Under the pieces are notes generated by a model, which was not told the origin of the DNA, ran no database searches, and saw only the letters and a program-made list of their open reading frames with translations. Both the position numbers and the translations under genes were made by a program. A DNA stretch of 43,630 nucleotides, counting the filler, from Jimgerdemannia flammicorona (lineage: Eukaryota), in NCBI GenBank assembly GCA_003990765.1. It is 2 parts of 2 records of this genome, joined end to end, with 100 filler letters (N's around TTAATTAATTAA, not from the genome) between each part and the next. Parts side by side here need not be neighbours in the genome. Positions count along the whole stretch, not along the records: positions 1 to 21,767 come from RBNJ01001398.1; 1 more part is not named here. One strand, 5' to 3'. Positions 2,101-28,224 of this stretch are shown piece by piece (position 1 is the first letter of the stretch; every line of letters starts with the position of its first letter).

Positions 2101-3637
2101 TTAGATAATAATTTAATAATTATAAACTTTAATTCTTTAAAGTCTAAGTCCTTTAGTATATCTTTTTTAAATATAGTTTAGTTCGAGAATTATATTTAAA
2201 TTCTTCAGAGTTCAAGTATTTATAGAGTTCAGGATATCTAATTTTAAATATAGTCTTTTAATTTAGATTATTTAAAAACTTATTTATATATTATAGACTT
2301 AAGTCTTAATTATTCTCTTTTTTCAAATTGAATATTCTATCCTTTATTGAGTTACTTCTCTGAGAGTATTTATACATTTTAAAGATTTTTAGATATTAAC
2401 TAATTATTAGCTAAAAAATATAAAACAGAAGGCTACTAGAAATAATATAAAAGTTACACTATAATGATATCATTACTAAGTCATAATAATGCTATTTTAT
2501 AATATTATTTTTATATATTAACTATGAGGTAATTATTCTAGATTTCAACTAAAAGTTTGTAATATAATATAATATATCATATAATAGTAATGAACTTTTA
2601 TGAAAAAAGTTGACTATCTTTATACTAGATGAGAAATAAGTTAGCTCTTCTAAGCTAGCTTCTGATCTCATGATCTCAGATAATATAAAAGACCAGTCAG
2701 AGGCTAGTCTAATATTAGAAGAGACAAGGTAGCCAGGGAGCCAGATGCTGATAAAACTAGTAATTTATATAATTGGTCTTTAGAGAAGACTAATAATAGA
2801 GTTAAAGATCTCATTCTCATAAGGTCAAATATTATCATTTTGATAATATTGTAGATTGAAGTTATTTATAAGATCTAACTCTATTTATATATTATATATA
2901 TTATTGAGACTACTAATTTCAATAGAAGCAATATCTTATATATATACCACTAATAGTAAAGAGTATTCTTCTGAATAGTTGGTAGATATAGAGTAAAATA
3001 TACTGTCTAAATATAGAGATATTATATTCATCCAAGATTTCTGCAGTATTTATACTACTTCTGACAATAAGTCTACCTGTTTAATAGTTTCTTAATATTA
3101 TAAAGTATCTGGTAATCTATTATATTCTAGATACAACTTCATCAGTAGTATATACATAAATACTATTCAAAGTTATATATATCTAAGTCAATATTTTTTC
3201 AGATAAACTAGTATTGATGGTCAAAAATGGTATTCTAGAGATATGTTCAGAGAGAGAAAGTATATCTATAAGTTTATATAGTTATTGTTTAGTTAATTAT
3301 TTTCTAGAGCTAATTACTAATCTTTTATTTATTTATCAAACAAACCATTTTAGTTTATGGTAATCATGATTTTATTACTTATTATAGTCTAATTTAGCTT
3401 ATAATATTACTGATCTTAAAGATCTTACTAGCTTATAATATTAAAAAACTAATAATATTAGTAGCTAATTTCAATATATTCTAATTCCTATAATATCATA
3501 GACTATTTTAGCTTATGATATCAATGGAGTTATAGACTAATTTAGTCTTATATTATTTTTAGCATTCTTAGTCTATTTTTGAGATATATCTATAGTGATA
3601 TTAGTAAATTTATATACTAAACTAGTATAAAGGCTAG

Positions 3638-4419: not shown

Positions 4420-7400
4420 AGTTACTCATTACTAACTCTCTTTATCAGTTATGACTAGAGAGTACTCTACTACTCACTATCTACTCTATCAGATAGTTAC
4501 ATATCTAACCAATGTTGAGATCTGTATCATTCTTCTCTCCTATCTAATATTGAAGTACTTCTTACATTCAAACAATCTCCTTTTTATCAAATATCTTAAC
4601 TTAATTTGGCATCATATTCTATTATAAGAGTTACTACTACACTAGGTGAGAGCCATCTCAATACTTCCTCTCTCCATGACCAGATACTTACCTAGTTCTA
4701 AGCCACAGGTCTCTACTCTATTCTTGCTGATACTTTATACTATTTTTCAGCTAAAAGTCAACTACTAGAGAACTCCTTAATAGAAGATGATTCTATCTCT
4801 ATATATTTAGTCTCCAGACTATCTCTCTCTTATAACTATATCAGCAGATCTCAATCTATTTACCACTCTTCACCAGAGGCCCTTATATTATATTTAATAA
4901 TTACTATCTAGTATTACTAAGAATAATAAATTACCAGAGATTTTTCTGGAGAAAATCATATCTCCCAGACCTTTTGTATAAGAAGTACCTAGCTCTAGCC
5001 CCTCAGCTCACTAGTCTATTTTAACAATCATACTCTCAAACAATACAGATACTTCATAAAGTCAATAAGACCAAGTTCTCTCTGATCTACTAGTAGTATC
5101 AATATATTTCAGCCTATCTAACTCTACTATCTAGTTCAAATTCAAGATCTGGTTAACTTTAGAAGTCTTCTTATCACTTATACTAAGAAGTCTAAATAAT
5201 ATTCCAAATACTATAGCTTAGACAACTAGTATAAATTCAGTACTATAACTCTCTCTATTAATGAGATACTACAGCCACCTTAGTTCAGAAGAACATTCTT
5301 CTGCTCTGCTAGCTTCTGCTCCCACTATACTTTAGGTAATAATGAGTCATATACTAAAAAGTAAATTTTCAGATATCAGACTATCTTCTTTGCTAAGACA
5401 ATTATTCTAATTATATTCTTTTCTATTACTTCACTACTAAGTACCAATGTCTCATATTTATACTAGTTGAGTTTGGCCCTAGAGTATCCCTCATACTACT
5501 CTACTACTCTCTTCAATATAGCTATATTCTCTACAGAGTCTAGCCTGATCACTATATCATCTACAAAGACTCTCATCTTCCAATTTACCCCCATTATTGT
5601 CAACTCTCTCACTCTGTATCTTATCTAGTCTAGTAAGAATTTTAAAGAGAGAATATAGAGAATAAGTAACAGTGGATCACTCTGTAACACTCCTTTATCT
5701 AAAGAGAAAGATACTCTTCTATAGTTATTAACTAAGATAGCTACTCTGCTTCTCTTCAAAGACTAATCAAAAAATACCAAAAGTCTGGAGAGATGCTGAT
5801 ATATTTCAGTACTCTATCTAATTACACCTTTTGTATCTAGTTATATATCTTCTCTTAATCAAGAAAAACTAGCTATTCATCTACCCCTATCACTCTGGTC
5901 TCTTTGATAATACTATAGACTCAGGCAGTCCTATTCTGAATCAAATGACCTCTAATAAAACTCTGCTGCTTCTCACTTAGTACTCTTTAAGCTATATCTT
6001 GTAGCTATACTATAATAATCTTTATAATCAGCTTTTGATCTATGTCCAGTAGTATGATTAATTGTCAGTTCTTCTACTTCTTTCTTCTTTCTTTATTCTT
6101 AAATAGTAGAGCTATCAGTCTCAGACATTGGTTCTCTAGCCATACTTCAGAACTAATAATCTTGTTATACATTAGTTATAGTTTCTCTAAAACTACTTCT
6201 ACCTCTACTATTCACTTCTAGAAGTCCTAGAGTAGTCTATTCTCTTTGAGAGTCATTCTGAGATTAGCCTCTGAAAATCTCCTCTCTCTGAACTAGGTTC
6301 CCCAACTCTGCCAGCTCCTCTGCTAAGACTGAGTTAGTGCTCAGAATAAATTAAATTGAAGTCTAATTCAATTTGAAATCTAATTTGAACCTAATTTTTC
6401 AAAATTCAATAACTCAATCAAAATATATTTAAATTTAATAAATTTTTAGCTTATTTAATATATCTTATAATAAAGAATCTAGTACAATAAAGAATATTAA
6501 ATTTGGATATATTTCTATTAAGTAATTATATTTTGAGTTTGGAATAAATATTTCAAATTAAATCAGATCCTAAATTAATTTAATTCAAATTCAAAAATTC
6601 TCAATTTGTTCAATTTAAATAACTCTTAATTTAATTTGATTCAAATTGATTCATTTTATTTGGAAGCACTAAACTGAGTACCAGTTCTCCAGATAGTACT
6701 CAATTGTCTACACATTCTCATCTCTCTTCTCCTTACTCTATAGTAAACTCTACCTCTCACTCAGCTGAACTAAGATATTCTGAGTTCTTACCACCAACTT
6801 CTCCTCTTTATTTAATACTCTATCTTAGTACTAATGCATCCTTCTCACTCAAAGAAGCCTTAACAGAAACCTTATCAGTCTCTCTTCTTTCTCTAGGCCC
6901 TATCACTATAGTCTGGCTATCATACTCTATACTTATATACTCTCCTCTATCTGTAATATATATTATAACTTCTCCACCTTTTATCAGATATATCAAACCC
7001 TCCAATTCTCTACTCTCTCAGCCTTTAGCAGACTAATCTATCTCTTCAAGAGCCTTTTCAATCTATATAATATCTACTGCACCCTCTCTTTTCTCTAGGT
7101 ACACCTTATTCTCCCTACCTTTCTTTAGAGATACTACGTATCAGACTTTAGTCTTTACTATTAATTACTAATAGAAATACCCCCCTCTCTCTAAGTAAGC
7201 ATCTTTAGTATAATATCTTCTACTCAAATATCTTATAATAAAGACTCTTTTAATAATATAGAATTCAGATATCAATATTTGTACCCCTCTCTATATTCTC
7301 CAAACCTCTCTCACTCTATAAGACCCCAATAATCTGACCAGAGGTACTATTCAGCTTCTAATAATTTCTAGACATTATCTCTCCAGTACTTAGCAGTTAG

Positions 7401-7689
7401 GACTCAATTAATCCTTAAGCCAAGTCCACCTATCTAATATATGAATACCCAGTATTTACCCTAGCTCTATCTGTCTATACATATCTATAAGAGAGTTAAG
7501 TTATTTAATTTTCTCTCAGCTATTCAGACCACTGCTCCTCTCAGACAGCTCTCTTTTACTATTCATCATATTTATCCTTCTATCTCAGATCATATTGAAG
7601 TTCTCTTTTAGATAGTTGACCCCTACTACAATCAGCTCATCTGACTCTCACAGTCTAGTAATCTAATTTATATAAGTTCTTCTCTCTAT
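4420..7689 (-). pseudogene. Heavily mutated LINE ORF2 (RT) relic, related to 33144-39068
   Basis: Reverse complement near 5640-5700 aligns with the GVPQGDPLSPILY-coding region; near 5430-5500 with the GARLNWHKCE region; near 5050-5140 with the GGLGLVDF region of the intact LINE. Boundaries approximate. Confidence 0.7.
6335..6671. mobile_element. hAT-like MITE inserted in the LINE relic
   Basis: Imperfect TIRs TAGTGCTCAGAATAAA / TTTATTTGGAAGCACTA; 8-bp TSD GACTGAGT (6327-6334) / AACTGAGT (6672-6679) with one G>A. Confidence 0.75.
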
Positions 7690-7985
7690 TAGTGTTCTAA
7701 AATGAATTGAATCAATTTGAATTAAATCAAATTGGAGTTGATTCAAATTGAATTAAATTGGATATTTTTGTTATTTGAATTGAATTCAAATCAAATTAAA
7801 TTTAAATTAAATTGAGAGTCTAATTTAAATTAGTTAAATCAAATTAAATATTAATTCAATAGTTCTTTATTTAAAAGATATATAGGTCACTTGAAATTCA
7901 TATATAAATATATAATTGAAATTTACACCTAATCAAAATTCATATATAACTAATATATATTTTTAAAATTTTCATATATATACAT
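7690..7985. mobile_element. Left end of another TAGTG(C/T)TC-family TIR element, abutting the LTR retrotransposon
   Basis: Starts TAGTGTTCTAAAATGAATTG followed by the same AATTG/AATC subterminal repeats as 3638 and 6335. No matching right end recognised. Confidence 0.5.
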
Positions 7986-8185
7986 TGTCATGTAGTGGTC
8001 GCCGAGTTCTTCAAATACGCCAGATTCTCTTCAAGGTGTATCTCTTAGACTAACTCAAGTTGTTATAAGCAAGTTCTTATTGGAGTGTCTTCCCAAGGTC
8101 TTATAGTTCTCAAACTTCTTATCTTTAACTATCTTGTTATCTCTTAGATTGCTTACAAGAAAGTGTGTAGGTGAACTTGACTGAC

Positions 8186-8218
8186 TTTATTTCAGAGGAA
8201 ATAAGAGAGGTATTTATA
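8186..8218 (-). promoter_or_regulatory. Putative main LTR TATA box (TATAAATA 8211-8218) and poly(A) signal (AATAAA 8186-8191); 5' LTR equivalents at 15447-15454 and 15422-15427
   Basis: Motifs on the element's sense strand ~230 nt before the LTR end, conserved in both LTRs. Function inferred. Confidence 0.55.
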
Positions 8219-8284
8219 CAAAATATAATTCAATGATTGCTAAGATATAAAGCTAAATATGAATTCCAATAACTAAAACTACTA

Positions 8285-8420
8285 AGTTCTAGAGCTGGTA
8301 TTATTTAGTATTATATCAAAATACTGGTGCTGGAACAATTTCGTGTCACCTCAGAATACTGGTGCTGGTATTATTCAGTGTTACATGAGAATACCGGTGC
8401 TGGCATTATCCAGTGTAACA
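8285..8420. repeat. Four degenerate 35-bp-period repeats (core AATAC(C/T)GGTGCTGG) in U3
   Basis: Cores at 8320, 8355, 8390 and a partial at 8294; also present in the other LTR (+7236). Confidence 0.85.
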
Positions 8421-8426
8421 AAGAAC

Positions 8427-9275
8427 TTAGAGCAGAAAGTTCAGGACTATGGGAGCTTCATCATCATCATTACTGAAGGAGATGAGGTCCATGAATTCAT
8501 CATGCAGGTCGTGCGTCTCACGTACTTTGTATGCCTCATTGCGTGGTTCACATGCTTCGGGTATGTTGTGCAGGATGACATCATCGATGATGTCATCACG
8601 TTCAGCTGTAGCGGGGAAATCGGGAACAAGGTCTGGGGCTCTCCAGTCTATGAGGTTCTCTTCTACAAAATAAGGAACAAATGTGGGGTCTTGGGGAGAT
8701 CTAACCCAGATGCTTGGGCCTTGGAATACTGAGATCAATTCTTGCAGAAATTGGTCTGGGTTGTCCTGAAGGATAGGGTGCCAGAAGTCTTCTACTTCTT
8801 CGCTGTTGAGGGTGATGGTGGACTGGGCTTCTGTGACTACCCTGGCTTCTAGTGCATTGATATGGCAGGATGACAGGTCTCTGAAGTCTGAGACTCTAAC
8901 ATACTCCAAGTTGGGGATCAACCATGGTGCATGCCTGAAGATCTGATAGATCTTCTTTGCTGTCCTTGCCTCATGTAGGTCTATGGGAGTGGCATCTTGT
9001 AGCTCTTGAGGGCTGGCCTGTGGGAACTCCTAGCAGAGGAGGTTTCCTATTTCATATTTCTGCCACATTTAGAGGCATTTGGTGGCAATGGTGATCTTTG
9101 TTTCCATTTCGCAGCAGTAGAGAATGAAGTGATAGGGGTCTACAGTACTCAGGTTGACACTAGGAGTCCTTCTTGAGTGGGTCCTCATGGCTCTTCTGAT
9201 GTCTTGGAACATCCTTTCCTCGACCGAGATACCTTGATGATTTCTTGACCTTGAGGTTTGGCAGGCAGCAGGCAT
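8427..9275 (-). pseudogene. LTR-encoded accessory ORF, 282 aa, unknown function (3' LTR copy, 2 premature stops)
   Basis: ORF-track pieces 9069..9275 and 8427..8921 are in one frame. Stops at 9069-9071 (TAA; CAA in the other LTR) and 9030-9032 (TAG; CGG in the other LTR). A-rich start context and TATAAAAG at 9355-9362. Confidence 0.85.
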
Positions 9276-9517
9276 TTTTTTTGTGGTAAGTCTTTGAGCT
9301 ATTTTGGGATTGGTGGTTCTTATTGGTTGCTGCTACTGTGGTTCCTTGATCCTTCTTTTATATTTTTCAGGATGCTTGTACTGTGGTCACAATGACTCAC
9401 AGTTGGTCATCATTGCTTATCTCATATGCTATATGATCTTCTTGTACTCCGATCTGGTGGCTTGTAAAGAAAGGCTGTCTCCTGTGCTGATGTCATCATT
9501 CTGGGGTCACTGTTATA

Positions 9518-9526
9518 TCTTTCTCC
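9518..9526 (-). other. Polypurine tract (GGAGAAAGA) abutting the 3' LTR
   Basis: TCTTTCTCC on + immediately inside the LTR boundary. Confidence 0.7.
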
Positions 9527-9873
9527 TGAATAAAGATCTTCCTGAGCATCCTTATTCATTAGTCCAGTTCTGAAAAATTTGCTGATCCCATAACCTCTGG
9601 CAAGGGGTTGAAAACTGATGTTTATGGGCTAGCATCTTCCCTTTGTATTTTGGTGTGATGGTGAAGGGTTGCTCCCTTCATATAGAGCAAGGGCCTGATT
9701 CTGATCTTGACCAATCAGTTGACAGTTCAAACTCCTCTGACTGCAAAAGTCTTTACGGATGAGTAGTTGCCAGTGCTGTATCCCTTAGAGAATGGTCCAG
9801 ACAGATAGCCTGCTGGTCATGGGACATGCTGTTACAATTCGCAGACTAGAACCTTATGGGTGGTCATCACATT

Positions 9874-11079
9874 TTACTTCTCTTGTATAGGTTCATGGTA
9901 CTTCTTGAGTCTGTTCTTATATACCATGGTAGGAAGTATGGTCCCTGAGATTTTTTTAAGCCAAAAGGTAGTTCTCTTAATATCTTACACATAGAAGAGT
10001 CCTTCCTATTTGGGCTCCAGTTTTCATGACCATGAGGCTTCTACCATATTTCGATACAGTAGAACCTTTTCTCCAATTTGGATATATTCTAGGGCCTTGT
10101 GATTCTTTTCTATATTCTTCCTTGTCAGTGCTTGTGACTTGGTGATGTAATCTTCAGCCTTCTTCCTGATTTGGTGTAGTCTCCGGATTTCTGCATCAAC
10201 CTGTCTCCAAGTTAGATCTAGATTTGTGGCTGAGGTTCCATTAGAATCTTCTTCTCTGAAGAGCAGCTCTCTTGGGGTAAAATGTGTGCTCTGTGATCGT
10301 ATATCTCGTAGAACAGAGAGGGCAGTTGGGAGATAGTTATCCCAATTCTCATATGTCTCTGAGATCTTTGCTAGGATGTTCTTGAGGGTCTTGTTGGTTC
10401 TCTCTATCTGTCCATTTCCTTGAGGGTGATATGCAGTGATCTTGATGTGCTGGATCTTGTATTTCTAGTACATTATCTCATAGAATCCATTGACAAATTC
10501 TGTGCTGCAGTCTGATGTGATTTGCTTTGGTGTCTTATAGCGGTAGATGATTTCTCGGTGTAGGAAATCAGCTATAGAGAGGGCATTGGCTTCTTGTAAT
10601 ACTCCTGCCTCTATCTATTTGGTGAAGAGGTCTACAATAACTATAATATAGCAGTTTCCTGATAGTGTTACTGGTAGTGGTCCAATGATATCCATTGTGA
10701 TGTGGTGGAAGGGGATAGGTTCAATTCTTGATAATCTGGGTGCCTGGTCTTACTGATCTTGTTTCTGTTTTTGGCACTTGTCACACCCTTTGACAAATTG
10801 GTGCAGGTCTTCTTCCATCTTGGGCCACCACATGGTTCTTTTTGCCTTGTCGTATATGTTGGTTCCTCCTAAGTGTCCTTGCTCATATACTTCCTTCATT
10901 ACTTGATACTTCTTGTGTTCAGGTATTACTAGCTTTCCTCCTTTTCTGAGTGTAGTGTTGTCTAATTCAAACTGTTTTCAAGTTCAGTTGATGATGGTGA
11001 TTGTCCAGAGTTTGAGATGGTTGGGCATCTTCTGCTGCCTAAGGTAGCTGATTAATCCATAGTATAGCTCCTTATTCAT
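9874..11079 (-). pseudogene. Integrase, separate 401-codon ORF with internal stops
   Basis: Begins MNKELYYGLISYL; degenerate HHCC (EQGHLG...CDKCQ), core MDIIGPL and YHPQGNGQIERTN, GPF-like KLEPK*EGLF; ends TAA at 9874. No chromodomain recognised. Confidence 0.88.
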
Positions 11080-14000
11080 GTTGAATAGTCTTGATGGAGA
11101 TGTTTCGGGGTATCCTTGAGAGTGCATCAGCATTGGTGTTGGTCTTTCCTGGGTAGTGCTTGACAGTACAGTCATATTCTTGCAGTCTATAGATCCATCT
11201 GGCATATATTTCTTTGGGGTTCAGAGTGTGGAATAGCTAGGCAAGAGTGGAATGGTCTGTCTGAATGGTAAAGTGTTTTCCAGCTAGGTAGTAGTGGAAC
11301 TTGTCTACTGCCCAAACTACCGCTAAGCATTCAAGCTTGTATGACTCGTAGTTCTGTTCTGCTCTGCAGGTACCTCGGCTTACGTAGGAGATGACATATT
11401 CATGTCCATCTTTCTTCTGAGCTAGGACTGCTCCAAGTCCTATAGCACTCACATCTGTCTGCAGGATGAATTCTAGGTTCCAGTCTGGTCTTCTGAGGAT
11501 GGGTACTTGGGTCAACCTGGTCTTAAGTTCATTGAAGGTTTCTTGGTACTCCTTGGTCTATTCGAATTTGGTCTCCTTCTTCAGTAGCTCATAGATAGGT
11601 GCTACAATGTTAGAGTATCCTTTGATAAATCTTCTGTAGTAGCTGGCCAGTCCAAGGAAGGCATGGACTTCTGTGGTTATTCTGGGTCTTGGGTAGGCTG
11701 CAACAGCCTCAATCTTCATGGGGTCTGTGTGGATTCCAGTCTGGTTGATTAGGTGTCCTAGGTAGGTAATTTCTTGAGCTGCAAACTTGCATTTCTTGGG
11801 CTTGATGTAGAGGCCATGCTCCTTGAGCCTCTCGAGAGCTAGCTGTATGTGATTGACATGTTCCTGTGCAGTATTGCTGAAGATGATCATATCATCAATA
11901 TAGACAAAGAGCCATTTTCCAATCTCGTTGCTGAAGACTCTATTCATCATTCACTGGAAACTTGCTGGGGCATTATACATTCCAAATGGCATTCGCAGAT
12001 AGATATAGGTGGCATCAGGTATGATGAAGGCTGATTTCTCACTGGCATCTTGAGTGAGACCGATCTGATGGAAGCCTGAGAACAGATCCAAGGTGGTGTA
12101 GTATTTGGCTTTGCTTCCAAGGGTGGTAAGGATTTCTTGAATATTCGGCAAGGGCTGCCTATCCTTCTTAGTGATGGCATTGAGTTTCCTGTAGTCAATG
12201 CAGGGTCTTGGTGCAAACTCTCCAGGCTTGCTTCCTTTCTTCGGGGCAAGGACAATGGGTGAGGCCCAGGGGCTGATAGCTTGCTTGATGATTCCGGCTT
12301 CTTCTATTTCCTTGAGTTCAGCTTGTAGCCACTCTCTGTAGGCAGGTGGTATGGGTCTGGCTTTCTGGTAGATAGGCTTGGTATCACCAGTGTCAACTTC
12401 ATGGTAGTACTTGGGTTCTTGATTGTGGATATCCCTAAAGTCTGTAGCAAGTACTCCTTCATTCTGGTGCAGGATCTTGAGAAGTTGTTCCTCCAGGGGA
12501 AATTTTTCTCCAATGGTATATGTGTGCTTGTTCTGGTTCTTGTTTTTCTTGTGCTCAAGTTTGGTAATCTTGGTGGCGGCATAGGCTCCTCTTCCAGTAG
12601 ATCCAAAGTCTTGTTCTCCTCTCTTGGTCTTGATAAGTTCAGTGGCCTCTTTGATCTTGGGCTTCTTGATTTCGTGGATCAGCATCTGGCCAATCCTGTC
12701 ATGCTTCTTGACTTCAAAGGGGGTGGTGTGGTTGTGATTTCTGACTATGAGAAAAATCTCACCGGTGTAATCAGGGTCAATTACTCCTCCTTCAACTGAG
12801 ATTTCACTTTTGGCTAGACTGCTCCTGGTCTTGATAATTCCGGCGTAGTTTTCTGGCAGCTTGACTCCAATTCCAGTGCCAAGTAGGGTGGTGGTCTGTG
12901 GTTTGAGGGTAGCATCTTGAATGCTGGCAAGGTCCATTCCTATGGCTTCTTCAGTCTTGTATTCTGGGATCTTGGCTTCAGGGTGAAACTTCTTGACCTT
13001 CAGAGTGATGTCTGATTCTTGTTCCTCCTCATCATCACTGTCAGCTTGAAGCTCTGGGGGCTGGTCATCTTCTTTGGCTTTCCTTTTTGCTTCGGCAGCT
13101 TCTTGCTCATATTTTTGTTGGTGGATTTTCCTAACTTTGCTGATACAGGACCAGCAGTCATTCAGGTGTTCAGAGTAGTACATTCTAGTACCATGGGGGC
13201 ATCTTCCTTGAGGGGCATACCCATCGATGATCTTGTTATACCACTGCTCATCTGTGAGCTTGGGTGTCTTGTTCTTGTTCTTGTTCACCAAGGGCATAAA
13301 GACCTCTGTGTCTTCTTCATCTCCTTCCTCCATGTCTGGCAGGACTCCTTTGTGGACATTAATAGAAACTCATACCTTTCTTCCTCTGTAGTTGATCTGC
13401 ATCTTCTGGGCATTGAGGTTAATGATGGCCTTGGCCTTGTGAAGCCATTGGTTACCAATGAGGATGTCATAGTTGATGGTGCTTGTAACAATCATGTCTA
13501 CTAGGATGGTAGCTCCTCCTATCTTGATGGGGACTTCTCGGATTTTGCCAAGGGGGATAGCTCATGTACCATCTGCTGTAACATAGACTATTTTGGTGGA
13601 CTCTTCAATGTCCCAACCTAGGTGGTCAATTGCCTTCTTGCTCATGAGATATCCTCCAGCACCAGTATCAATGATGGTATCAAAGATACAGTCTTCAATC
13701 TGGCAAGGGGTATAGGCTGATGTCTTGTGCTGGTCTTTGGATTCTTCACCTGAGTTCTCAGATTCTTCTTGTGCATTGTGAGCTTCTACAATCTTGTACT
13801 CTTGATTCTTGACAGTAGTTGCAAGTCCTACTCTCAACTGCTGTCTGAAGGCAGGGACTTCAGCTAGCTACCCAAAAGTGGCATTGACCTTCTGTTCCTT
13901 GAGGTCCTTGTAGATGTCATACTGATAGATCTTAGTCTTATGCAGCTTCTGTTCCTTCTTGCTCTCACTTTCTCCTGAGACTGGAGTAGTACCTTCAATG

Positions 14001-15100
14001 ATTTGGTGGGCAGCCTTGTCTAACTCCATGTCTTGATCAATCTCCTCATGTTGGGTCTTACTTTAAATAGTGACAGCTGGAGTCTTTTTTGGTCTTCCAA
14101 CTGGCTTGCTATTGCTCTTCTTGTCATAGGGCTTGGACTAGGTTCTGGTACCTTCAGTAGTAGGGTAGAATTCGAGCTCCTCATAATACTCTTCATCATC
14201 AGTGTCACCAATCTCCTCAATGACTACTGCATTGGTTTGTTCTCTGGTTCTGCTAGCATTGCTTGGTTGGGCTTTGTGTCTTGTTTCGGTCATGCAATTC
14301 TTTGCATAGTGGCCTTCTTCTCCATATTTGAAGTATGTGATGTTATTGCGTTCTTCTATAGCAGCTGCAAATCTCTACACTGGTCTCCTGTTGACACTTC
14401 GGACTTCTTTAACAACATCACCAAGGTGTGCAGTCATCTCAGCGAACTGCTTGGCAAGTTCTTCCACTGGGTCAGCTTTGGCTGTCTTGGGGGTAGGTGG
14501 GGTTGGTTGTCTGTTTACAACTGTGGTAGGTAAGATACTAGTTGGCTTTGATAGCTTTATCTTGATGCTAGTTATTTTCTCCATTGAGTGTTTGGCAGGG
14601 TGTCTAGCAGTCCAATATCTCTGTGCAAAGACCACTTTCTGATCAAGGGTCAGTGCAGCTAGGGTAGACCAGATTGCTAGGGCAATTTCAGGGTGAACTC
14701 CTTTAAGAAAGGTTGAATCTGCTATTTGTTCCTTGAGGCGGTCATCATAGCCAGCCAAGACAATCTGGTGGCAAATTTGGATATAGAATGAGTTGGGATC
14801 TTCACTAAGTCTCTGGCAGATAGTATTGAGTTGATCCTTGAGAGCTTGCTTGATCTCTTCGGTATAATATATTGTTCTGAGGAAGGTCTTCATGTTGGCA
14901 AGTTTGGGTGCACCAGCATCAGCAATGGTGGCTGCATTAAACTTGTCTCAGGCAGGTCCTCTGAGGCTGACTGGTAAAAGGGCCAATTGAGCATCCACAC
15001 CAAGGGCTCGTATGGTGGCAAATTGTTCAAAGTCTTCAATGAAGGTCAGGATTGACTCTTCAGTAGTATATCTATAGAATGTAGGGGGACACATTTCCAT
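11072..15100 (-). pseudogene. Gag-PR-dUTPase-RT-RNase H polyprotein, one frame (~1342 codons) with scattered stops
   Basis: ORF-track fragments starting 14893, 13837, 13333, 11950 and 11515 share a frame. PPTFY Gag start, decayed zinc knuckle YFKYGEEGHYAKNC, protease IIDTGA, RT LDLFSGFHQI/MPFG/YIDD, RNase H LQTDVS...ADALSR. True Gag start uncertain. Confidence 0.92.
12593..13003 (-). other. dut: Trimeric dUTPase domain within Pol
   Basis: All five motifs: AIGMDL, RSSLA, GVIDPDYTGEI, DRIGQML, RGEQDFGSTG. Confidence 0.95.
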
Positions 15101-15201
15101 CTTATCTTGAATTCTTGCAGGGGGTGACTCTTGTAGTCAGAGTAGTTGTTGTGGGGGTTGTTCATTTTTCAGCTTGAAAGTGAGGGATTTGTCTTGAATC
15201 A

Positions 15202-15218
15202 CCAGCCAATGGGCACCA
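15202..15218 (-). other. Putative primer-binding site TGGTGCCCATTGGCTGG (tRNA not identified)
   Basis: Starts with TGG 3 nt after the 5' LTR end on the sense strand. Confidence 0.6.
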
Positions 15219-15221
15219 AGT

Positions 15222-16753
15222 TGTCACGTAGTGGTCGCCGAGTCCTTCAAATATGCCAGATTCTCTTCAAGGTGTATCTCTTAGACTAACTCAAGTTGTT
15301 ATAAGCAAGTTCTTATTGGAGTGCCTTCCCAAGGTCTTATAGTCCTCAAACTTCTTATCTTTAACTGTCTTGTTATCTCTTAGATTGCTTGCAAGGAAGT
15401 GTGTAGATGAACTTGACTGACTTTATTTCAGAGGAAATAAGAGAGATATTTATACAAAATATAATTCAATGGTTGCTAAGATATAAAGCTAAATATGAAT
15501 TCCAATAACTAAAACTACTAAGTTTCAGGGCTGGCATTATTTAGTATCACATTAAAATACTAGTGCTGGAACAATTTTGCATCACCTCAGAATACTGGTA
15601 CTGACATTATCCAGTGTTACATGAGAATACCAGTGCTGGCATTATCCAGTGTAACAAAGAACTTAGAGCAGAAAGTTCAGAACCATGGGAGCTTCATCAT
15701 CATCATCACTGAAGGAGATGAGGTCCGCGAATTCATCATGCAGGCCACACATCTCGTGTACTTTGTATGCCTCGTCGCATGGTTCACATGCTTTGGGTAT
15801 GTCATGTGGGATGACATCATCGATGACGTCATCACGTTCGGCTGTGGCGGGGAAATCAGGAACAAGGTCTGGGGCTCTCTAGTCTATGAGGTTCTCTTCC
15901 ACAAAATAAGGAACAAATGTGGGGTCTTGGGGAGATCTAACCCAGATGCTTGGGCCTTGGAATACTGAGATCAATCTTTGCAGGAATTGGTCTGGGTTGT
16001 CCTGAAGGATAGAGTGCCAGAAGTCTTCTACTTCTTTGCTGTTAAGAGTGATGGTGGACTGGGCTTCTGTGGCTACCCTGGCTTCTAGTGCATTGATATG
16101 GCAGGATGACAGGTCTCTGAAGTCTGAGACTCTAACATACTCCAAGTTGGAGATCGACCATGGTGCATGCCTGAAGATCTGATGGATCTTCTTTGCTGTC
16201 CTTGTCTCACATAGGTCCATAAGAGTGGTATCTTATAGCTCTTGAGGGCTGGCCTGTGGGAACTCCCGGCAGAGGAGGTTTCCTATTTCGTATTCCTGCT
16301 ACATTTGGAAGCATTCAGTGGCAATGGTGATCCTTGTTTCCATTTCGCAGTGATAGAGAATGAAGTGATAGGGGTCTGCAATACCCAGGTTGATACTAGG
16401 AGTCCTTCTTGAGCGGGTCCTCATGGCTCTTCTGATGTCTTGGAACATCCTTTCCTCAACTGAGATACCTTGATGATTCCTTGACCTTGAGGTTTGGTGG
16501 GCAGCAGGCATTTTGTTTATAGTAAGTCTTTGAGCTATTTTGGGATTGGTGGTTCTTGTTGGTTGCTGCTACTGTAGTTTCTTGATCCTTCTTTTATATT
16601 CTTCAGGATGCTTGTACTGTGGTCACAATGACTTACAGTTGGTCATCATTGCTCATCTTATATGCCATATGATCTTCTTGTACTCCAATCTGGTGGCTTG
16701 TAAAGAAAGGCTGTCTCCTGTGCTGATGTCATTATTCTGGGGTCACCATTACA
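15222..16753 (-). repeat. 5' LTR (1532 bp)
   Basis: TGTCACGTAGTGGTCGCCGAG...GGGGTCACCATTACA; direct repeat of 7986-9517. Confidence 0.96.
15663..16511 (-). pseudogene. LTR-encoded accessory ORF (5' LTR copy, 3 premature stops)
   Basis: Stops at 16299-16301 (TAG; TGG in the other LTR), 16233-16235 (TAA; CAA) and 15879-15881 (TAG; TGG). None is shared with the 3' LTR copy. Confidence 0.85.
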
Positions 16754-17679
16754 ACATATAACTCTGGTTCTGATCCTAGTCTCAACTATACCTGGTTATA
16801 GTAATAGCTATCTAGTGAATATTATTATATGATATTTTTTTCAGCAGAAGATTAGAGATCAATGGATTGAGTTGTTGACAAATTTTGAGAAAAATACAAT
16901 ATATTTTTCTATATCTTCTACAATTGTTGCAGCTTATATGAGGTCAACCTTTAGTTTTTTAATGAGTAGTAGCTTGAGTGATGGCTTGGGCTTAGACTTG
17001 GGGTTGGGTAGCAGCTTGGACTTGAGCAATAGCTTAGACTTAGGTGGTATCTTTAGAGGTCTCAGAGGCCTCAGGAGTGGAGGCTTTAGGAGTAGCCTGA
17101 GGGGTAGTTTCAGGTTTAATTCTTGAGATAAATTGCTTGATTACTTCTTCAATCTTCTTTTTCTTCTTCTTATATTTATTATCAGTTTTAGGTTCTTCAT
17201 CATTCAACCAGATAACAATCTTGTTAGTAGTATGGTTTATATTCTCAAAGGCTCTAGAAAGATGATTAACATAGAATTGAAGTTTTTTATAAGGTGAGAT
17301 TATTTTTTTATTTTTTATTTTTAGTTTGTTTTTTATTATTATTAAAGTCAGCTTATTTATATATACTTTATCTATACTTATTACAATATCTGAAGCTCTT
17401 GGCTCATACTTATTATAATATTTAAAGCTCTTAGCTTATATTTATTACTTACAAAATTGTAGACTTGTAAACTTGCAAGCATAAGTATTTTGGATATAGT
17501 GACTAAGTATATATAATATATATCCTTAAGTTTTGAATATATTTAAAATTCTATATATTATACAATTAATGCTGCTTATCATCTATCTCTAGTACTTTTA
17601 AATAGATATAATGATATCTCACTTATCTCATTAGAGCTAAAAATAACAAAAATTATATTCAAATATAACAATTAGATAT

Positions 17680-19176: not shown

Positions 19177-21767
19177 CTTTTCAGCTCACAAGAACCCACA
19201 GTCAAACTGGATACATTTGATACAACACTAATTTCTGCCACTACAGGAGAACCAGTCATCACTAGCATTTGGACAGGAAGAGAAGTAATCATCTCAAGAC
19301 TTGCCAACTACCCAGCATCAGAAGGATCCCAATCAGAAGCAGGAGGCAGTACAGCCCGAAATCCCCAACTAGATCAACTAGAACAACCAGACAATACAGG
19401 CAGCCCTGCTAGAGTTTTTGGAGAACTTGCACAAGAACTAGACAAACTTATTACCTGGACCCAACATCTTACAGCCAGACAGCATACACCAGTCCCACCA
19501 ATTTTACCAATAGAACCCCTACCACAACCTCTTGCAGAACCAGAAGTAGCTCCTATAAGGATACCTAGGCCTACTCCACCTCACCCAAGAACAAGAACAC
19601 CATCTTTGAGATACCCAAGCACCCTGGTCTCTAGTGATAGTTCAGAAAGTGAATCAGAATCAGAATCCGAATTCGAACCAGAATTAGAAGAAAGTGACAA
19701 AGAAATGGCCACCTCATTGCCAATCTTTGCAGGATACCCAGAGGAAGACCCCAGAGAATTCCTTGATGGAATCGAAGGAATCGCAGCCTTGAGGAATCTC
19801 TCAGATGAAAGGAAAATTGCCATCTACAAAGCTCAGCTCAGAGAACCAGCCAGAGGGATTTTCCATTGAACAGCAAACAACCCAGATTTGGAACTAGCAA
19901 GACAGATACAAGCAGTAGTCTCCTATGAGCTAGAATATCAGGCCATGGTCTACTGGCTCATAGAAAAGTATACAGGAAATGAAACCCACCACAAGGCCCA
20001 GGAATCCATCATGGGAATGAAGATGAATCTTGGAGAATCACCCAGAGCCTTCTTCACAAGAATCCAGAAGAGGATGTACTCTGCTGGGTTCAATGCCACC
20101 AACCAAGACATCATAGGTCCAATGACCTTCATGAATGGGATTCCTCTGAATATTGCCCAGCATGTCCGCACCCTAGGCATCAGAAGGTCTGAAGAGCAAG
20201 TAGATGCAGCCCAAGGATTCTTTGATGTCAGGCAAGGAATCACCTGGAGTGACCATGACAAGAAGGAAGATAAAGAAGATATCCTGGTCAAAGCCCTGCA
20301 AGGACTCCTTCAAGGACAAGAAAGGTCTGAAGAAAGAAGGCCAGCCAAGGAAGGAAAGAAGGACAGAAGCAAAATTCAAGACCTCAGCTCCAAGTTAGAC
20401 CGATTGGTTGGACAGATTGAAAAACTCACCACATGTGAAAATCAGGACTACCAAAACAACAGAGAGTACCCACCACAGAGGAGCCAAGGTTATCCATCAA
20501 GAGATAACAGGAATTACCAGCAAGAAGAAAGAAGGTACCCTGTCCAAGACAGAGCCCAAGTCCAATGCTTCCACTGTGGACAACTCGGACACTATGCCAC
20601 TGAATGTGACAACAAAAGAAGTGACCGAAGGGACTCAGAACCACTAAACTGAAGGAATGACACCCAGTACAAGAAGACTGAAGCCCATCCTGTTGAAGAT
20701 TTCGAGGAAGCAAGCAACAGTGAAGACTACAGTGACCTAGACTTGTACCCTACCAAGGTTACCACCTGAAAGACAGTCTACCCAGCAGAGAAAAGAAAGA
20801 GACCTGTGGGAAGACCATCCAGGAACATCAGCAGGAGAATTATTCAAGAAGAAGATGAAGAACATGAGGAGGAACAAGTTGAAACACCTCTCTGAACCCC
20901 TTCACCTTTTATGCCCGAGACAAACGAGTTGCCACCAGAAGATGAAGAAATAGAACAAGAAGAACGGGAACCTGCTGCTCCAAAGTCTAAGAAGAAGTAC
21001 ACCCTGAAGACCATGTCTAGGGATATTTACAATGAAGCCTGGCAGAAGATTCAAGAAGCCAAGATGGAAGTCCCTCTCCTGCAGTTCTTGCAACTGACAC
21101 CAGCTGGAGTCTGAAACAAATTGCTGAGAACCACCAGGTCTAGCACTGGCCAAGTTCCAATCCCACAGCAAGAACCAGCTTCCATCCCGGTCCAAGCAGC
21201 TGAAAGACATGTCAGCACCTACTTACATGGAGATATTGGAGGGCAAAAAGCGAAAATTCTCATAGATACAGGAGCAGCTGTCTGTGTCATTGCCAAACGA
21301 TTCTTGGACACCCTCCAATGGCCCATTGATGGACCATCCAACCTCAGCATCATAGTAGCAGATGGAGCCCGAACTCAACCCCTCGGAGAAGTACAAAATA
21401 TCACCATCTCCCTTGGACACATTCAGTTCTCTATCCCCAAAGCTGTTGTTACCGAAGCTGTCACCTATGACATGATTCTTGGCACCAACTGGATGAAGGA
21501 AATGAATGCAGTTATTGATATTGGCCAACAAGTACTCAAGTTTGACTACCGAGGCAAGAAGTACAGAGTCAAGGTAACCAGCTATGAGCAATCAAAGAAG
21601 AAGAAGAAGGTCACTATTCAAGAAGAATATGCCAGCAGTAAGGAGTCTACTACAGAAGAGGAAGAAGAATCCGAAGATGGAAATGATCCCAGACTCAATC
21701 CACGAATTAACCTGGTGGATGACAGACCAGAAGACAATGTGTGGGCCAAGAACACTATCCCTATCAC
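19177..21767 (+). pseudogene. Gag-protease frame of element 2 with in-frame TGA stops
   Basis: Fragments 19606, 19888, 20911 and 21121 share a frame that is open from 19177. LPIFAG..EDP Gag motif, CFHCGQLGHYATEC, ILIDTGA...ILGTNW protease. Confidence 0.9.
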
Positions 21768-21867
21768 NNNNNNNNNNNNNNNNNNNNNNNNNNNNNNNNN
21801 NNNNNNNNNNNTTAATTAATTAANNNNNNNNNNNNNNNNNNNNNNNNNNNNNNNNNNNNNNNNNNNN
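21768..21867. other. Artificial contig linker
   Basis: 44 N + TTAATTAATTAA (21812-21823; stops in all six frames) + 44 N = 100 nt. Confidence 0.95.
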
Positions 21868-23744: not shown

Positions 23745-24849
23745 TTAAAATGGGTTCCCCGTCTTATCCAGCAGCGCCTGCCAGTATTTCTCAAAATCCC
23801 ACTTGAAGTTTATACCTCCATTGAAGTCCTTCTCGAGTTGTTCCGGGGTGTAATACTCGAACAGGCTGACCCACTCGTGTTCTTTACTGGAGTCTTTGGC
23901 GGGTTCGTACACGTGCTTGGGATCCACGAACTTGATCTTCGAACGCGTAATTGGGTCGATGAACGGACTGATGACCTTAAAGAAGGGCCAAAAGAACCAG
24001 GGAGCTAGAAGAGAGTTACAATGGTGCGTCAATCAACAATTTTCCCTTGCATCATACAACTCACCAGATCCTCATAACTCATAAACAAAACCATAACAAT
24101 CCGCCTAGATTCACACTCACAATGCACGATGCACGCCACTCCCAGCCTCTCTGGATAATGATTGCCCAACACGTCCAAAAATTGCTTCGAGATCCCGACT
24201 CCCGGCGAGGTCGACATCGACGACCCGGCCATGTCGATGATGATATTGAGGTTATCGACTCCCTCGGGCATCAGACGAGTGGCTCGTTCGAGATTGAACA
24301 CGACGTTACGAATCTGCGCTGCGGAAGGTTTGGTATTCTCGTAGCGCGGCTTGAGGTAGAGCGTCGGGCGGCCGTGTTTGTCGAAGCCATTGAGATACAT
24401 CTTGCCAGTTAGGGACTTTGTAGGAGAGAGAGGAGAAGAGAAGGAATGAATTCGGGTTGCCGGACATGGGAAGGGGAAATCTTGCCAAGAATACCGACCT
24501 CAGGTTCGACCTCCTTCGGATCAATCATTTCTGGCTTATATGACCTCCTCCACAGGATACTCCCATCGAGCTGCTTCTTCGCAGACTCGAGATCCCACTT
24601 CCTGGCACGCAAATATCTCTGCAACGTCGAGTCCGATAGGAACGCCGTTTCTTTCGCATGGTAGTCGTCGGTCTCGGGCAGGACCTGTACCTGAACGTGC
24701 TCACGCAGCGCCTTGAGTTTGTGCTGCTGGGACTCGTCCAGCGCCGGGTTCAATAGCAGTTGGATTCCCGAGCTGGGTTCGAGCACGGGGATGTGAGTCA
24801 CGGGTGTCTCGACATTGGGGTCGGGTTTGGGGGTGGAGTCGGTGGTCAT
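23745..24849 (-). CDS. CRAL-TRIO (Sec14/Pdr16-like) lipid transfer protein
   Basis: Exons 24499-24849, 24121-24415, 23745-24004; LQRYLRARKWD, GFDKHGRP, HYPERLG, PFIDPITRSKIKF. Confidence 0.93.
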
Positions 24850-25543
24850 TGTGTGTATGAGAAATAAACTGCTTAGAGAGTCGGGCGGAGGAAAGGGAAG
24901 GGTTTTATTGTGGCGTGGTTGAGGAAACAGAGAATGCTTTGAGCCGTCCCACGTGCAGAGACGTGGAAAAATACTTGTGAGTTCGCCCTTGGACAAAGTT
25001 GGAGAACCAAAGGACTCGGGGACGATGATTGCTAATTAATTATAACCCAAAGATAACAAAGGTCACTGCCAGATATGTCCTTCTCGCAAATTGCGTGGCG
25101 ACTGTCAAAGAAGGTCCCATGATGTGAGCTTATCCTAGTAATCAAAAACAAAGGAACACAACGCATCGTTGAAAATCGAGCCTTTCCTTTTACATGCAAC
25201 TCTTTATATAAAACACTAAATCTCAACATGTGGTTGGAGAACCCATCAATATTACTGATAAAACCCCGCTTCACCTCTTAAGTTTCAGCCAAAACATCCC
25301 TCGCTCAACATCTGTCACCACCTCAATCCTAAGTGTCACACCTTCCCCGCTTCCGCTAAGCAACGAGATGGCGACGTTCGAGTGGCCGGCGGCTCCTTGA
25401 ATTTGCCAGATGTCTAGCAGCATGAGGTGAAGGGAATTAGCGAGTGAACAATTGGATGAGACCCCCCTCACCCCCCCCCCCAAAAAAAAACCATTCAGCA
25501 ACACGTAAGGGCATAACATATCGTTGCGAGTAAAGTTACAACA

Positions 25544-26272: not shown

Positions 26273-26658
26273 GTTAGGCGTGTGGGTGGCGGTCGGAGTG
26301 GGTGGTGGTCGGAGTGGGATGCACGTGGTATTATTATTAATGTCTCAACACATATGACTGTGGCATTACCTTTTTTACATTACCTCCGTTCTTCATTTCA
26401 CTCTCCCCATGAACCAAGGCCCCATATTTTCTATAAAACCACCTTCTGATTGTAGGTTGAGGCGTGTCATGCTGCACCTCCACAAGTGGATTCGCTACCT
26501 GGTCGGTGACTACCATTGCAAGCTCGCATGATGGCCATGCGAGAACTACGGGTTGTGCTATATCAAACCTGACCCACTGACCCTAAAATTAAGTTGGTCC
26601 ATAGAGGCAAAAATTGTCCAGCATATAATAAGCAAGTCGCACTGACCCACACCCTGGA

Positions 26659-28224
26659 ATGATGAATCCTTCTCCTGCCCCCGCAAAAAGACGTAACTCC
26701 ACCGTTTCCGACAAACAACCCACCGTACGTTCATTGACCCTCCTTATTTCACTCACTTCATCTCCCATCGCTTTGATACTGACACATCATCCCCAACAGA
26801 AACGATGCGTCCAAAACCGCGATGCCCAGCGTGCCTTCCGCGAGCGCAAGGCCGAGTACGTCAAAGAGCTCGAGGAGAAGGTACGCCGCACTGAGGCAGA
26901 CCAATCCCAGTTCACTGCGAGATTGCAAGAGACCGCTCGCAAGCTATCGGAAGAGAACCAGACTCTGAAATCCGTTGTCCTTCGTCTTCATGCCGACAAC
27001 AACCTGTTGCGAACCGCCTTGCTTGCGGCCGACCTTCCCATCCCAACGTCACCGGACTTCGCAATAGACATTCTCTCGTCGCCGTTATCTGGTCAACCTA
27101 TCCCACCACTTCATCGACCCACCTACAACACCACCACTCAACCCATCCAACCTCAGGTCCTCCCATTATCCACCACCAACAAACAACCACTCATCCAACC
27201 AAGCATTGTATCCACCTCCGACACCCAACGCGACAGCCCTATCATCTGTCCACCGACACCCCCGTCCCTCGCGCAATCCATCGAAAACCCGTGCGCATGC
27301 AAACCCCAGACCACCTGCAAACCCCAGACCACCTGCAAACCCCAGACCACCTGCAAACCCCAGACCACCTACAACTCAACACCATCCCAACCAAATTTTT
27401 CCCTCACAACCCTGGTCCCTACCAGTCCGTCGATAAAACCTACTACCTCCTGCGCCATCACACCCGCCCCGCCATCCTCCGAAACCCCAAACACTCTCTC
27501 TCGTGTTGTCCTGGTTTCGACTGAAGATCTGGACCTGACGCAAGACAACGACGATGGTGACTATCTCCCTGACGTCGCGTGCATGAGCTGCATGGGGACC
27601 GACCCGCTTGGCAAGCAGTTCTGCCGTGTTCTCAACTCCAAAGCCTGCACCGTGAGGCCACAGCTCCAGTGCAGCCCCGAGCAGATCCTACATCGCCCGC
27701 TGTTCCTCGAATCCGAGAGCGGGATCGTCACCCTGGCCGATATGGTGGCGAGGAAGCCGACAGAGGATTATTGTGGGGGGATGGTAAACTGTGGGGAGGA
27801 GGACGTTGCTGATATCGGTAAGTGCCTGTGGTTTGACGCGTTTTGCATGTCGTTTTTGTTAAATAGGTTAATTAAAACTTCATCATTTATGACTTACAAT
27901 GCCCTCTGCCTGTATCCGAAATCTACCCTAAACTCAGCGAACGACTATGTCCCTTGCCAAACCGTCTGGGACCTGTTCGGCAACCACGTCCGGTCTAACC
28001 AGTTGTCGATTCACGAGCTTTGCTCGTGGCTTGAGATGAGGACGCGATGTTCGCGTGAGGGGCCTTTGGTTGAGGGTCACGCCGTGATTGAGGCTCTTAG
28101 TCGACTATCGATTAATGACACGAGTGTGGAGGCGAGGGTTGAGACGGAGGTTGAGGCGGGGGTTGAGGTGAATGGGGAATATAGCGGCCAGCGGATAATG
28201 TTGGCGTTCAATGCTGACTTTTAG
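26659..28224 (+). CDS. AP-1-like bZIP transcription factor (Yap1/Pap1/HapX family) with Cys-rich domains
   Basis: QNRDAQRAFRERK basic region plus zipper; CMSCMGTDPLGKQFC; C-terminal PCQTVWD...ELCSWLEMRTRCSREG. Probable introns 26725-26799 and 27818-27937. Confidence 0.88.
   Translation: MMNPSPAPAKRRNSTVSDKQPTVRSLTLLISLTSSPIALILTHHPQQKRCVQNRDAQRAFRERKAEYVKELEEKVRRTEADQSQFTARLQETARKLSEENQTLKSVVLRLHADNNLLRTALLAADLPIPTSPDFAIDILSSPLSGQPIPPLHRPTYNTTTQPIQPQVLPLSTTNKQPLIQPSIVSTSDTQRDSPIICPPTPPSLAQSIENPCACKPQTTCKPQTTCKPQTTCKPQTTYNSTPSQPNFSLTTLVPTSPSIKPTTSCAITPAPPSSETPNTLSRVVLVSTEDLDLTQDNDDGDYLPDVACMSCMGTDPLGKQFCRVLNSKACTVRPQLQCSPEQILHRPLFLESESGIVTLADMVARKPTEDYCGGMVNCGEEDVADIGKCLWFDAFCMSFLLNRLIKTSSFMTYNALCLYPKSTLNSANDYVPCQTVWDLFGNHVRSNQLSIHELCSWLEMRTRCSREGPLVEGHAVIEALSRLSINDTSVEARVETEVEAGVEVNGEYSGQRIMLAFNADF
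27298..27369 (+). repeat. Perfect 18-bp coding tandem repeat x4 (CKPQTT)
   Basis: TGCAAACCCCAGACCACC repeated four times. Confidence 0.97.

Follow-up and report, generated by a model that had tools for sequence, protein, structure and literature searches.

A probable protein-coding gene inside the long terminal repeats of a fungal Ty3/gypsy retrotransposon

The two long terminal repeats (LTRs) of a Ty3/gypsy retrotransposon in Jimgerdemannia flammicorona each contain, wholly within their bounds, a complete gene of 282 codons. Its frame is very probably a real, selected protein-coding gene, since it has homologues and since its dN/dS ratio against one of them is 0.20-0.22. Judged by its sequence, the encoded protein belongs to an orphan family. 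On balance, we lean towards a reading in which the gene resides in U3 and is transcribed from a promoter of its own. The analysis was carried out on a stretch of 43,630 nucleotides, filler letters included, which is called the window here.

Results

Architecture of the element

When the window was compared with itself, a direct repeat pair was found at 7985-9510 and 15221-16746 with 92.9% identity over 1526 bp. The bounds were refined to 7986-9517 and 15222-16753, which gives two LTRs of 1532 bp each, and the 7 bases added in this way differ between the copies by transitions only. The features of the element are:

15222 to 16753, minus strand: 5' LTR, 1532 bp, TG..CA ends
7986 to 9517, minus strand: 3' LTR, 1532 bp, TA..CA ends, the initial TG having been hit by a transition
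16754 to 16757, minus strand: target-site duplication ATGT, upstream copy, perfect over 4 bp
7982 to 7985, minus strand: target-site duplication ATGT, downstream copy
9518 to 9527, minus strand: polypurine tract AGGAGAAAGA, abutting the 3' LTR
15202 to 15218, minus strand: sequence resembling a primer binding site (PBS), starting with TGG, 3 nt past the 5' LTR; in other copies (sequencing runs X2 and X6) this sequence adjoins the LTR end
9874 to 15100, minus strand: decayed gag-pol with 18 stops and one frame change before IN
13394 to 13708, minus strand: PR
12593 to 12979, minus strand: dUTPase, between protease and reverse transcriptase, E 6e-28
11753 to 12238, minus strand: RT
11174 to 11557, minus strand: RNase H
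10759 to 10926, minus strand: IN zinc domain
10423 to 10716, minus strand: IN core

The Pol domains were detected with E-values from 1e-9 to 1e-34 (3e-8 for PR) and follow each other as PR, dUTPase, RVT_1, RT_RNaseH, Integrase_H2C2 and rve, which is the order of Ty3/gypsy elements (Metaviridae). The direct LTRs with TG..CA, the short target duplication and the polypurine tract adjoining the 3' LTR are also those of a Ty3/gypsy LTR element. A chromodomain was not detected in pol, the element is without env, and a non-coding spacer of about 350 nt extends from the end of pol (9874) to the LTR. We conclude that the element is a dUTPase-bearing Ty3/gypsy LTR retrotransposon of a fungus, lying on the minus strand. 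A dUTPase between PR and RT is a known position; passages of PMC2864245 and PMC6431247 describe it for PosPlaTy3-5 as well as for elements of fungi and rotifers.

No tRNA gene was found in the window for comparison with the PBS-like sequence, and no self-priming complement of at least 8 nt was found in the LTR. A search of 7900-16850 against Rfam gave 0 matches.

Contigs from four sequencing runs, two of them soil metagenomes, contained thousands of fragments of the family with 80-100% likeness. Runs X2 and X6 each include a contig in which the LTR end at 7985 is followed by the PBS sequence that is found past the 5' LTR of the window. Since the same LTR end is joined to the same PBS, the LTR acts as a 5' LTR in other copies. 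In all four runs the LTR had a greater contig depth, which is not copy number, than the internal part of the element (about 2.3-fold in X1). Bins of low depth at 8442-8655 were not taken as a finding.

Surroundings of the element

Several other features were observed in the window. An apparent host gene at 26632-28224 on the plus strand is an open frame of 530 codons that encodes bZIP_1 and PAP1 domains and is Yap1/AP-1-like; its neighbours in the Atlas were all fungal, with Basidiomycota, Ascomycota and Mucoromycota mixed. An exon with a CRAL/TRIO N-terminal domain, also apparently of the host, lies at 24409-25035 on the minus strand. These two genes identify the window as fungal DNA. The remnant of another retroelement at 19177-21819 (plus strand) has ORFs that encode a CCHC zinc knuckle and an aspartyl protease; it is interrupted by the N runs at 21768-21811 and 21824-21867, and a separate RT fragment is located at 36655-37203 (plus strand). 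Three inverted repeat pairs with 77-82% identity were also seen (893-1528 and 2614-3244, 659-760 and 3533-3631, 6577-6672 and 7689-7786), the last of them just outside the 3' LTR. These pairs may represent arms of elements of the foldback or TIR type.

The same open frame in both LTRs

The earlier note had claimed that both LTRs hold the same sense-strand frame, running from 9275 to 8427 and from 16511 to 15663, and we found it in both places with 282 codons each:

8427 to 9275, minus strand: gene copy in the 3' LTR, 282 codons and a stop, internal stops at codons 69 and 82
15663 to 16511, minus strand: gene copy in the 5' LTR, 282 codons and a stop, internal stops at codons 71, 93 and 211

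The frame had been said to cover over half of the LTR, and it takes up 55% of the 1532 bp. The earlier description proved correct down to the single base, and the peptide motifs quoted in it were present in both frames. The five premature stops (2 + 3) were each private to one LTR, as proposed, and transitions alone suffice to derive them from the codon of the other LTR. In the 3' LTR copy, codon 69 is TAA where the 5' LTR has CAA, and codon 82 is TAG where it has CGG. In the 5' LTR copy, codons 71, 93 and 211 are TAG, TAA and TAG, and the 3' LTR has TGG, CAA and TGG at these positions.

Per 100 codons, the two copies of the gene have 0.71 and 1.06 stops, and the gag-RH region has 0.76. Since these densities match, the gene was as intact as gag-pol when the element inserted. 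The note had also supposed an intact 282-codon ORF at insertion, which is very probably right because the stops are private and as dense as in gag-RH.

The number of stops was then compared with simulated sequence. The frame of the gene has 3 stops, the terminal one included, against a mean of 14 in Markov simulations of the same composition; 3 stops or fewer occurred in 0.02% of 5000 such simulations. The other five frames of the region have 9-21 stops. The codon use of the gene correlated with that of gag-pol at r 0.56-0.63 and with that of two host ORFs at r 0.30-0.43, and its third-position composition is element-like. No further copy of the gene was found in the window outside the LTRs, all 46 HSPs falling inside them.

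Hypermutation of this copy

The present copy was inactivated after insertion by transition-only hypermutation of the C-to-T type, at a rate as in gag-pol. Its two LTRs differ by 107 transitions, split 55 to 52, and 1 transversion, from which we conclude that hypermutation of the cytosine-deamination type killed it. The presumed C-to-T changes have hit 33% of the CpG, 21% of the CpA, 13% of the CpC and 4% of the CpT sites. Such a signature is that of cytosines deaminated in repeated DNA, whether by a RIP-like process or through methylation. Because of this signature, the divergence of the LTRs cannot be used as a clock here. Dated by its LTR pair, the element offers a clean case of hypermutation through transitions alone.

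Homologues and purifying selection

Relatives of the LTR protein were searched for in several ways. A word-indexed search returned 6 relatives among 386 candidates and a profile search 13 among 4632. The exhaustive HMMER scan of 1.84 billion representative proteins gave 5 matches at E<=0.001, all on short unnamed contigs. The relatives share 26-88% identity with the window copy, and all of them are unnamed proteins encoded on short metagenome contigs of JGI or ENA; the databases hold open frames only, which biases the set towards intact copies. Contig sizes were 4848 bp for protein P0019 and 2375 bp for P0007. No longer or fused form of the protein was found among 8000 candidates.

For the family alignment, 20 database proteins were combined with the two window copies, giving 22 members. 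The fragments P0010, P0013 and P0014 (89-108 aa) and the borderline P0024 were omitted. Four of the 20 aligned proteins (P0002, P0009, P0011 and P0019) extend from a shared MP.. start through a shared ..LNF.. end, and the indels lie mostly in the C-terminal tail. In eleven columns of the alignment, Arg alternates with Cys, His, Trp or Gln across the metagenome homologues, which is what cytosine deamination does to CGN codons. This suggests that many of the database 'proteins' of the family are themselves copies decaying through CpG deamination.

When metagenome DNA was scanned, a single relative was recovered as DNA, on a contig of 1345 bp (L001). No relatives were found among 128 pattern matches in the viral_contigs DNA or among 471 in the genome_contigs DNA. 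L001 carries an open copy of 323 codons, 343 codons from stop to stop, and the longest open frame in 2000 simulations had 233. Between the window and L001, pN was 0.29-0.31 and pS 0.68, with most change at third positions; the resulting dN/dS of 0.20-0.22 is a rough ratio because dS is saturated, but it lies far below neutrality. The first 215 codons gave 0.14-0.16. As a control, the LTRs of the window were compared with each other, which gave a dN/dS of 0.54. This agrees with the neutral value of 0.53 +/- 0.15 obtained for 68 random transitions scattered over the frame. The dN/dS of the gene against L001 is well below the neutral level of about 0.53, which shows purifying selection on the gene within the family.

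Putative promoters and the position of the gene in the LTR

The following motifs were found in the LTRs:

9355 to 9362, minus strand: first TATA, TATAAAAG, in the 3' LTR, 87 nt before the ATG with no intervening ATG; the 10-mer AATATAAAAG is identical in L001
16591 to 16598, minus strand: TATAAAAG before the ORF in the 5' LTR
8211 to 8220 (3' LTR) and 15447 to 15456 (5' LTR), minus strand: second TATA, TGTATAAATA, conserved in L001
8185 to 8191 and 15421 to 15427, minus strand: AATAAAG, a poly(A)-signal-like motif 27 nt past the second TATA, conserved with TCAGTCAA in L001
8294 to 8420, minus strand: 35-bp tandem repeat in 3.6 copies between the ORF stop and the second TATA, an enhancer-like position
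9393 to 9399, minus strand: TGAGTCA, 30 nt ahead of the first TATA; found in the 3' LTR but altered by a transition in the 5' LTR; motif only
9488 to 9495 and 16724 to 16731, minus strand: TGACATCA near the LTR start, in both LTRs; motif only

A TATA about 80 nt upstream of the ORF and a separate one near the LTR end had been noted, and both LTRs have them: TATAAAAG stands 87 nt before an ATG with an A-rich context, and TGTATAAATA is the second. The first TATA is followed by a clean 87-nt A/C-rich leader and preceded by bZIP-type motifs, TGAGTCA being presumably an AP-1/Gcn4-type site and TGACATCA what we take to be a CRE-like site.

In BLASTN, the alignment of L001 with the LTR was confined to two thirds of the ORF, counted from its start, with 70.6% identity, and the flanks were otherwise unalignable. 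Nevertheless, a series of short blocks is kept in the same order in the flanks of L001, namely AATATAAAAG before the ORF, TTAGC..TATA.CTTAGCAA, TGTATAAATA, (T/A)AATAAA followed by TCAGTCAA, and GACTCCAA. The window and L001 therefore have a common layout of TATAAAAG, ORF, second TATA TGTATAAATA and AATAAA..TCAGTCAA, and TATAAAAG is conserved despite a DNA divergence of about 30%. L001 begins 3 nt before the TATA and ends short of the LTR end, so that LTR status outside the window rests on this architecture and on the contig junctions.

A TATA followed by AATAAA 27 nt on is the classical arrangement of a U3/R border. The second TATA, together with the AATAAA downstream and the 35-bp repeat upstream, may form the promoter and poly(A) unit of the genomic RNA. 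Because this group looks like the usual U3/R border, the gene would be placed in U3, a position that the motif spacing suggests. The conserved TATAAAAG 87 nt before the ATG would then be a separate promoter for the gene. That the gene has its own promoter is what we narrowly favour. The predicted mRNA would be about 1.2 kb long, would end at the AATAAA of the LTR itself and could be transcribed from both LTRs of an element as well as from solo LTRs.

The chief rival placement reads the same motifs in another way. The ORF could lie in R instead of U3, with TATAAAAG as the sole promoter, the gene as the first cistron of the genomic RNA and TGTATAAATA..AATAAA as the poly(A) signal. Use of this signal in the 5' LTR would yield a short mRNA, and read-through would produce genomic RNA in which R is about 1.1 kb long. 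Such an RNA would regenerate the same LTR, and the conservation of the first TATA, the lack of an ATG between it and the ORF start and the resemblance of a UGUA/A-rich element plus AAUAAA to a fungal poly(A) signal are all consistent with it. However, gag would then stand behind the 849-nt ORF plus about 600 nt more leader, and an R of 1.1 kb is unusual. The 35-bp tandem repeat and a conserved block also lie directly upstream of the second TATA, like the enhancers of U3, and the second TATA with its AATAAA has the spacing of the classical border. We consider placement in R unlikely and keep to the U3 position with a separate promoter.

Properties and possible function of the protein

The highest hydropathy over 19 residues was 1.07, which indicates that there is no transmembrane segment. 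In the 7 full-length rows of the alignment, the first 45 residues have a net charge of +1 to +8, the 170-residue core of -6 to -18 and the C-tail of -14 to -26 with 18-40 bulky hydrophobic residues. The AlphaFold model has helices within residues 19-185 followed by a small hairpin, with a mean pLDDT of 55 over the full length and 68 over residues 1-221. The LTR protein is accordingly taken to be soluble, its N-tail being basic, its core helical and its C-tail acidic and rich in hydrophobic residues. Within this C-tail, F-x-[DN]-L is reminiscent of an Atg8-binding motif, and LISF with an acid run of a SUMO-binding motif; both motifs are very short.

Searches for known families and folds gave no match. 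Pfam assigned no family to either window copy, and 0 of the 22 family members had a significant hit (the best was ATG5_HBR, E 0.022, in 5 of the 22). The best hit of a sequence profile against the PDB had an E of 1.3. Foldseek with moderate models yielded no match at E<=0.001, neither against the PDB nor against the predicted viral structures of BFVD. VIA-align against 48,161 chains gave best Z scores of 4.2 and 4.4, and the top score in the ESM Atlas was 0.83, the level of shuffled proteins.

If we may guess from the charge layout, the protein is a nuclear regulator with an acidic activation tail. Because of this layout, a self-activating role like that of foamy-virus Tas was rated highest among the functions; speculatively, the soluble product would act in trans on the expression of its own element. 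By analogy, an activator role is a tentative proposal, and that self-activation ranks above counter-defence is likewise a guess.

Counter-defence would mean that the product acts against deamination, against a RIP-like or methylation-linked process or against RNA silencing, comparable to Bet of foamy viruses or VANC of Arabidopsis. The accessory genes of retroelements are often anti-restriction factors, the element has suffered heavy transition-only mutation (107:1), and it carries with its dUTPase another anti-uracil function. Yet the Pfam, PDB and fold searches revealed no similarity to any known inhibitor, and this copy was mutated nonetheless. An anti-defence factor appears distinctly unlikely to us. 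We give as little weight to the most far-reaching idea, that every LTR, solo LTRs included, is a promoter-gene-terminator unit for a new counter-defence or self-activating protein. The family would then be protected or switched on in trans, for example against C-to-T hypermutation or silencing, and thousands of dispersed LTRs would serve as distributed gene dosage.

Other modes of expression and other origins

The gene might also be expressed solely from the 3' end of the element RNA, by means of a spliced subgenomic mRNA for instance, and the upstream TATA would then be incidental or used otherwise. The U3 copy does lie 3' of pol in the genomic RNA, as do the 3' accessory genes of retroviruses, and the spacer of about 350 nt after the end of pol is non-coding. 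However, the 10-mer around the first TATA is identical in L001 amid diverged surroundings, and we regard expression from the 3' end alone as very unlikely.

Accessory ORFs of LTR elements are often captured, according to PMC5408684, and the ORF could be a captured host gene or a passenger without a role in the life cycle of the element. Against this stand the lack of any named or longer host relative (5 matches in 1.84 billion representatives and 0 of 8000 longer candidates), the element-like codon use and third-position composition, and the purifying selection across LTR copies. A captured or passenger ORF is highly improbable on these grounds. The last alternative, a chance open frame without a gene, could appeal to the A/C-rich sense strand, which is poor in T and G and so lengthens random frames, but the stop-count simulations oppose it, and the homologues and the dN/dS rule it out.

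Discussion

LTRs are normally treated as non-coding control regions, and apart from the present case a protein gene inside an LTR is known mainly in a few retroviruses. In open-access full text, the literature on an ORF inside an LTR concerns almost only the sag gene of MMTV, and an LTR-resident gene was not found there for any fungal element. A figure legend of PMC2864245 marks an 'add. ORF' in some fungal elements, which might bear on priority. The ORF of the MMTV 3' LTR is named in the abstract of PMC2118998.

The gene described here resembles MMTV sag in that a complete protein gene is located inside the LTR and is thus present in both LTRs. The hosts differ, since here the LTR gene belongs to a fungus and to an element without env. 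Sag is a type II membrane glycoprotein and a superantigen of a vertebrate retrovirus. In contrast, the LTR protein has no hydrophobic segment (maximal hydropathy 1.07) and no Pfam family in 22 of 22 members.

In foamy viruses, Tas/Bel-1 and Bet are encoded by 3' accessory genes that reach into U3 and have an internal promoter of their own. Tas, a nuclear protein of about 300 aa, carries an acidic activation domain and turns on the LTR. The LTR gene is like Tas in size, charge layout and the putative logic of two promoters. However, Pfam and a Foldseek search of predicted viral structures with moderate models gave no sequence or fold match for its protein, and the foamy internal promoter lies in env whereas the candidate promoter of the LTR gene lies in the LTR. 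The VANC protein of Arabidopsis VANDAL elements is a transposon-encoded, trans-acting anti-silencing factor that serves its own family. Unlike the LTR gene, it comes from a DNA transposon and does not reside in an LTR.

Extra ORFs are also found in plant and rotifer elements. According to passages of PMC3485330, ORF0 of rice Retrosat2/RIRE, ORF3 of bdelloid rotifers and the aORFs of plants are lineage-restricted orphan ORFs of unknown function with Ka/Ks <1, and ORF0 of Retrosat2 is located upstream of gag-pol. The LTR gene shares with them the status of a lineage-restricted orphan ORF in a Ty3/gypsy-type element. They are internal, however, with one copy per element and none in solo LTRs, whereas the LTR gene lies within both LTRs. 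PosPlaTy3-5, Tmt1 and the P. chrysosporium elements are dUTPase-bearing fungal Ty3/gypsy elements like the present one, and the passages on such elements in PMC2864245 and PMC6431247 mention no LTR-resident gene.

If a selected gene with its own promoter indeed resides in the LTR, it is duplicated in every element and remains in each solo LTR. The copy number of LTRs, the formation of solo LTRs and transcription driven by LTRs would then have to be read differently in these fungal genomes. The orphan family, so far seen only in unnamed metagenome contigs, may represent a new class of accessory factor in transposons, be it an activator or a counter-defence. Taken together, what is new here is an LTR-resident accessory gene in a fungal Ty3/gypsy retrotransposon that encodes an orphan family, a kind of gene already known from a retrovirus.
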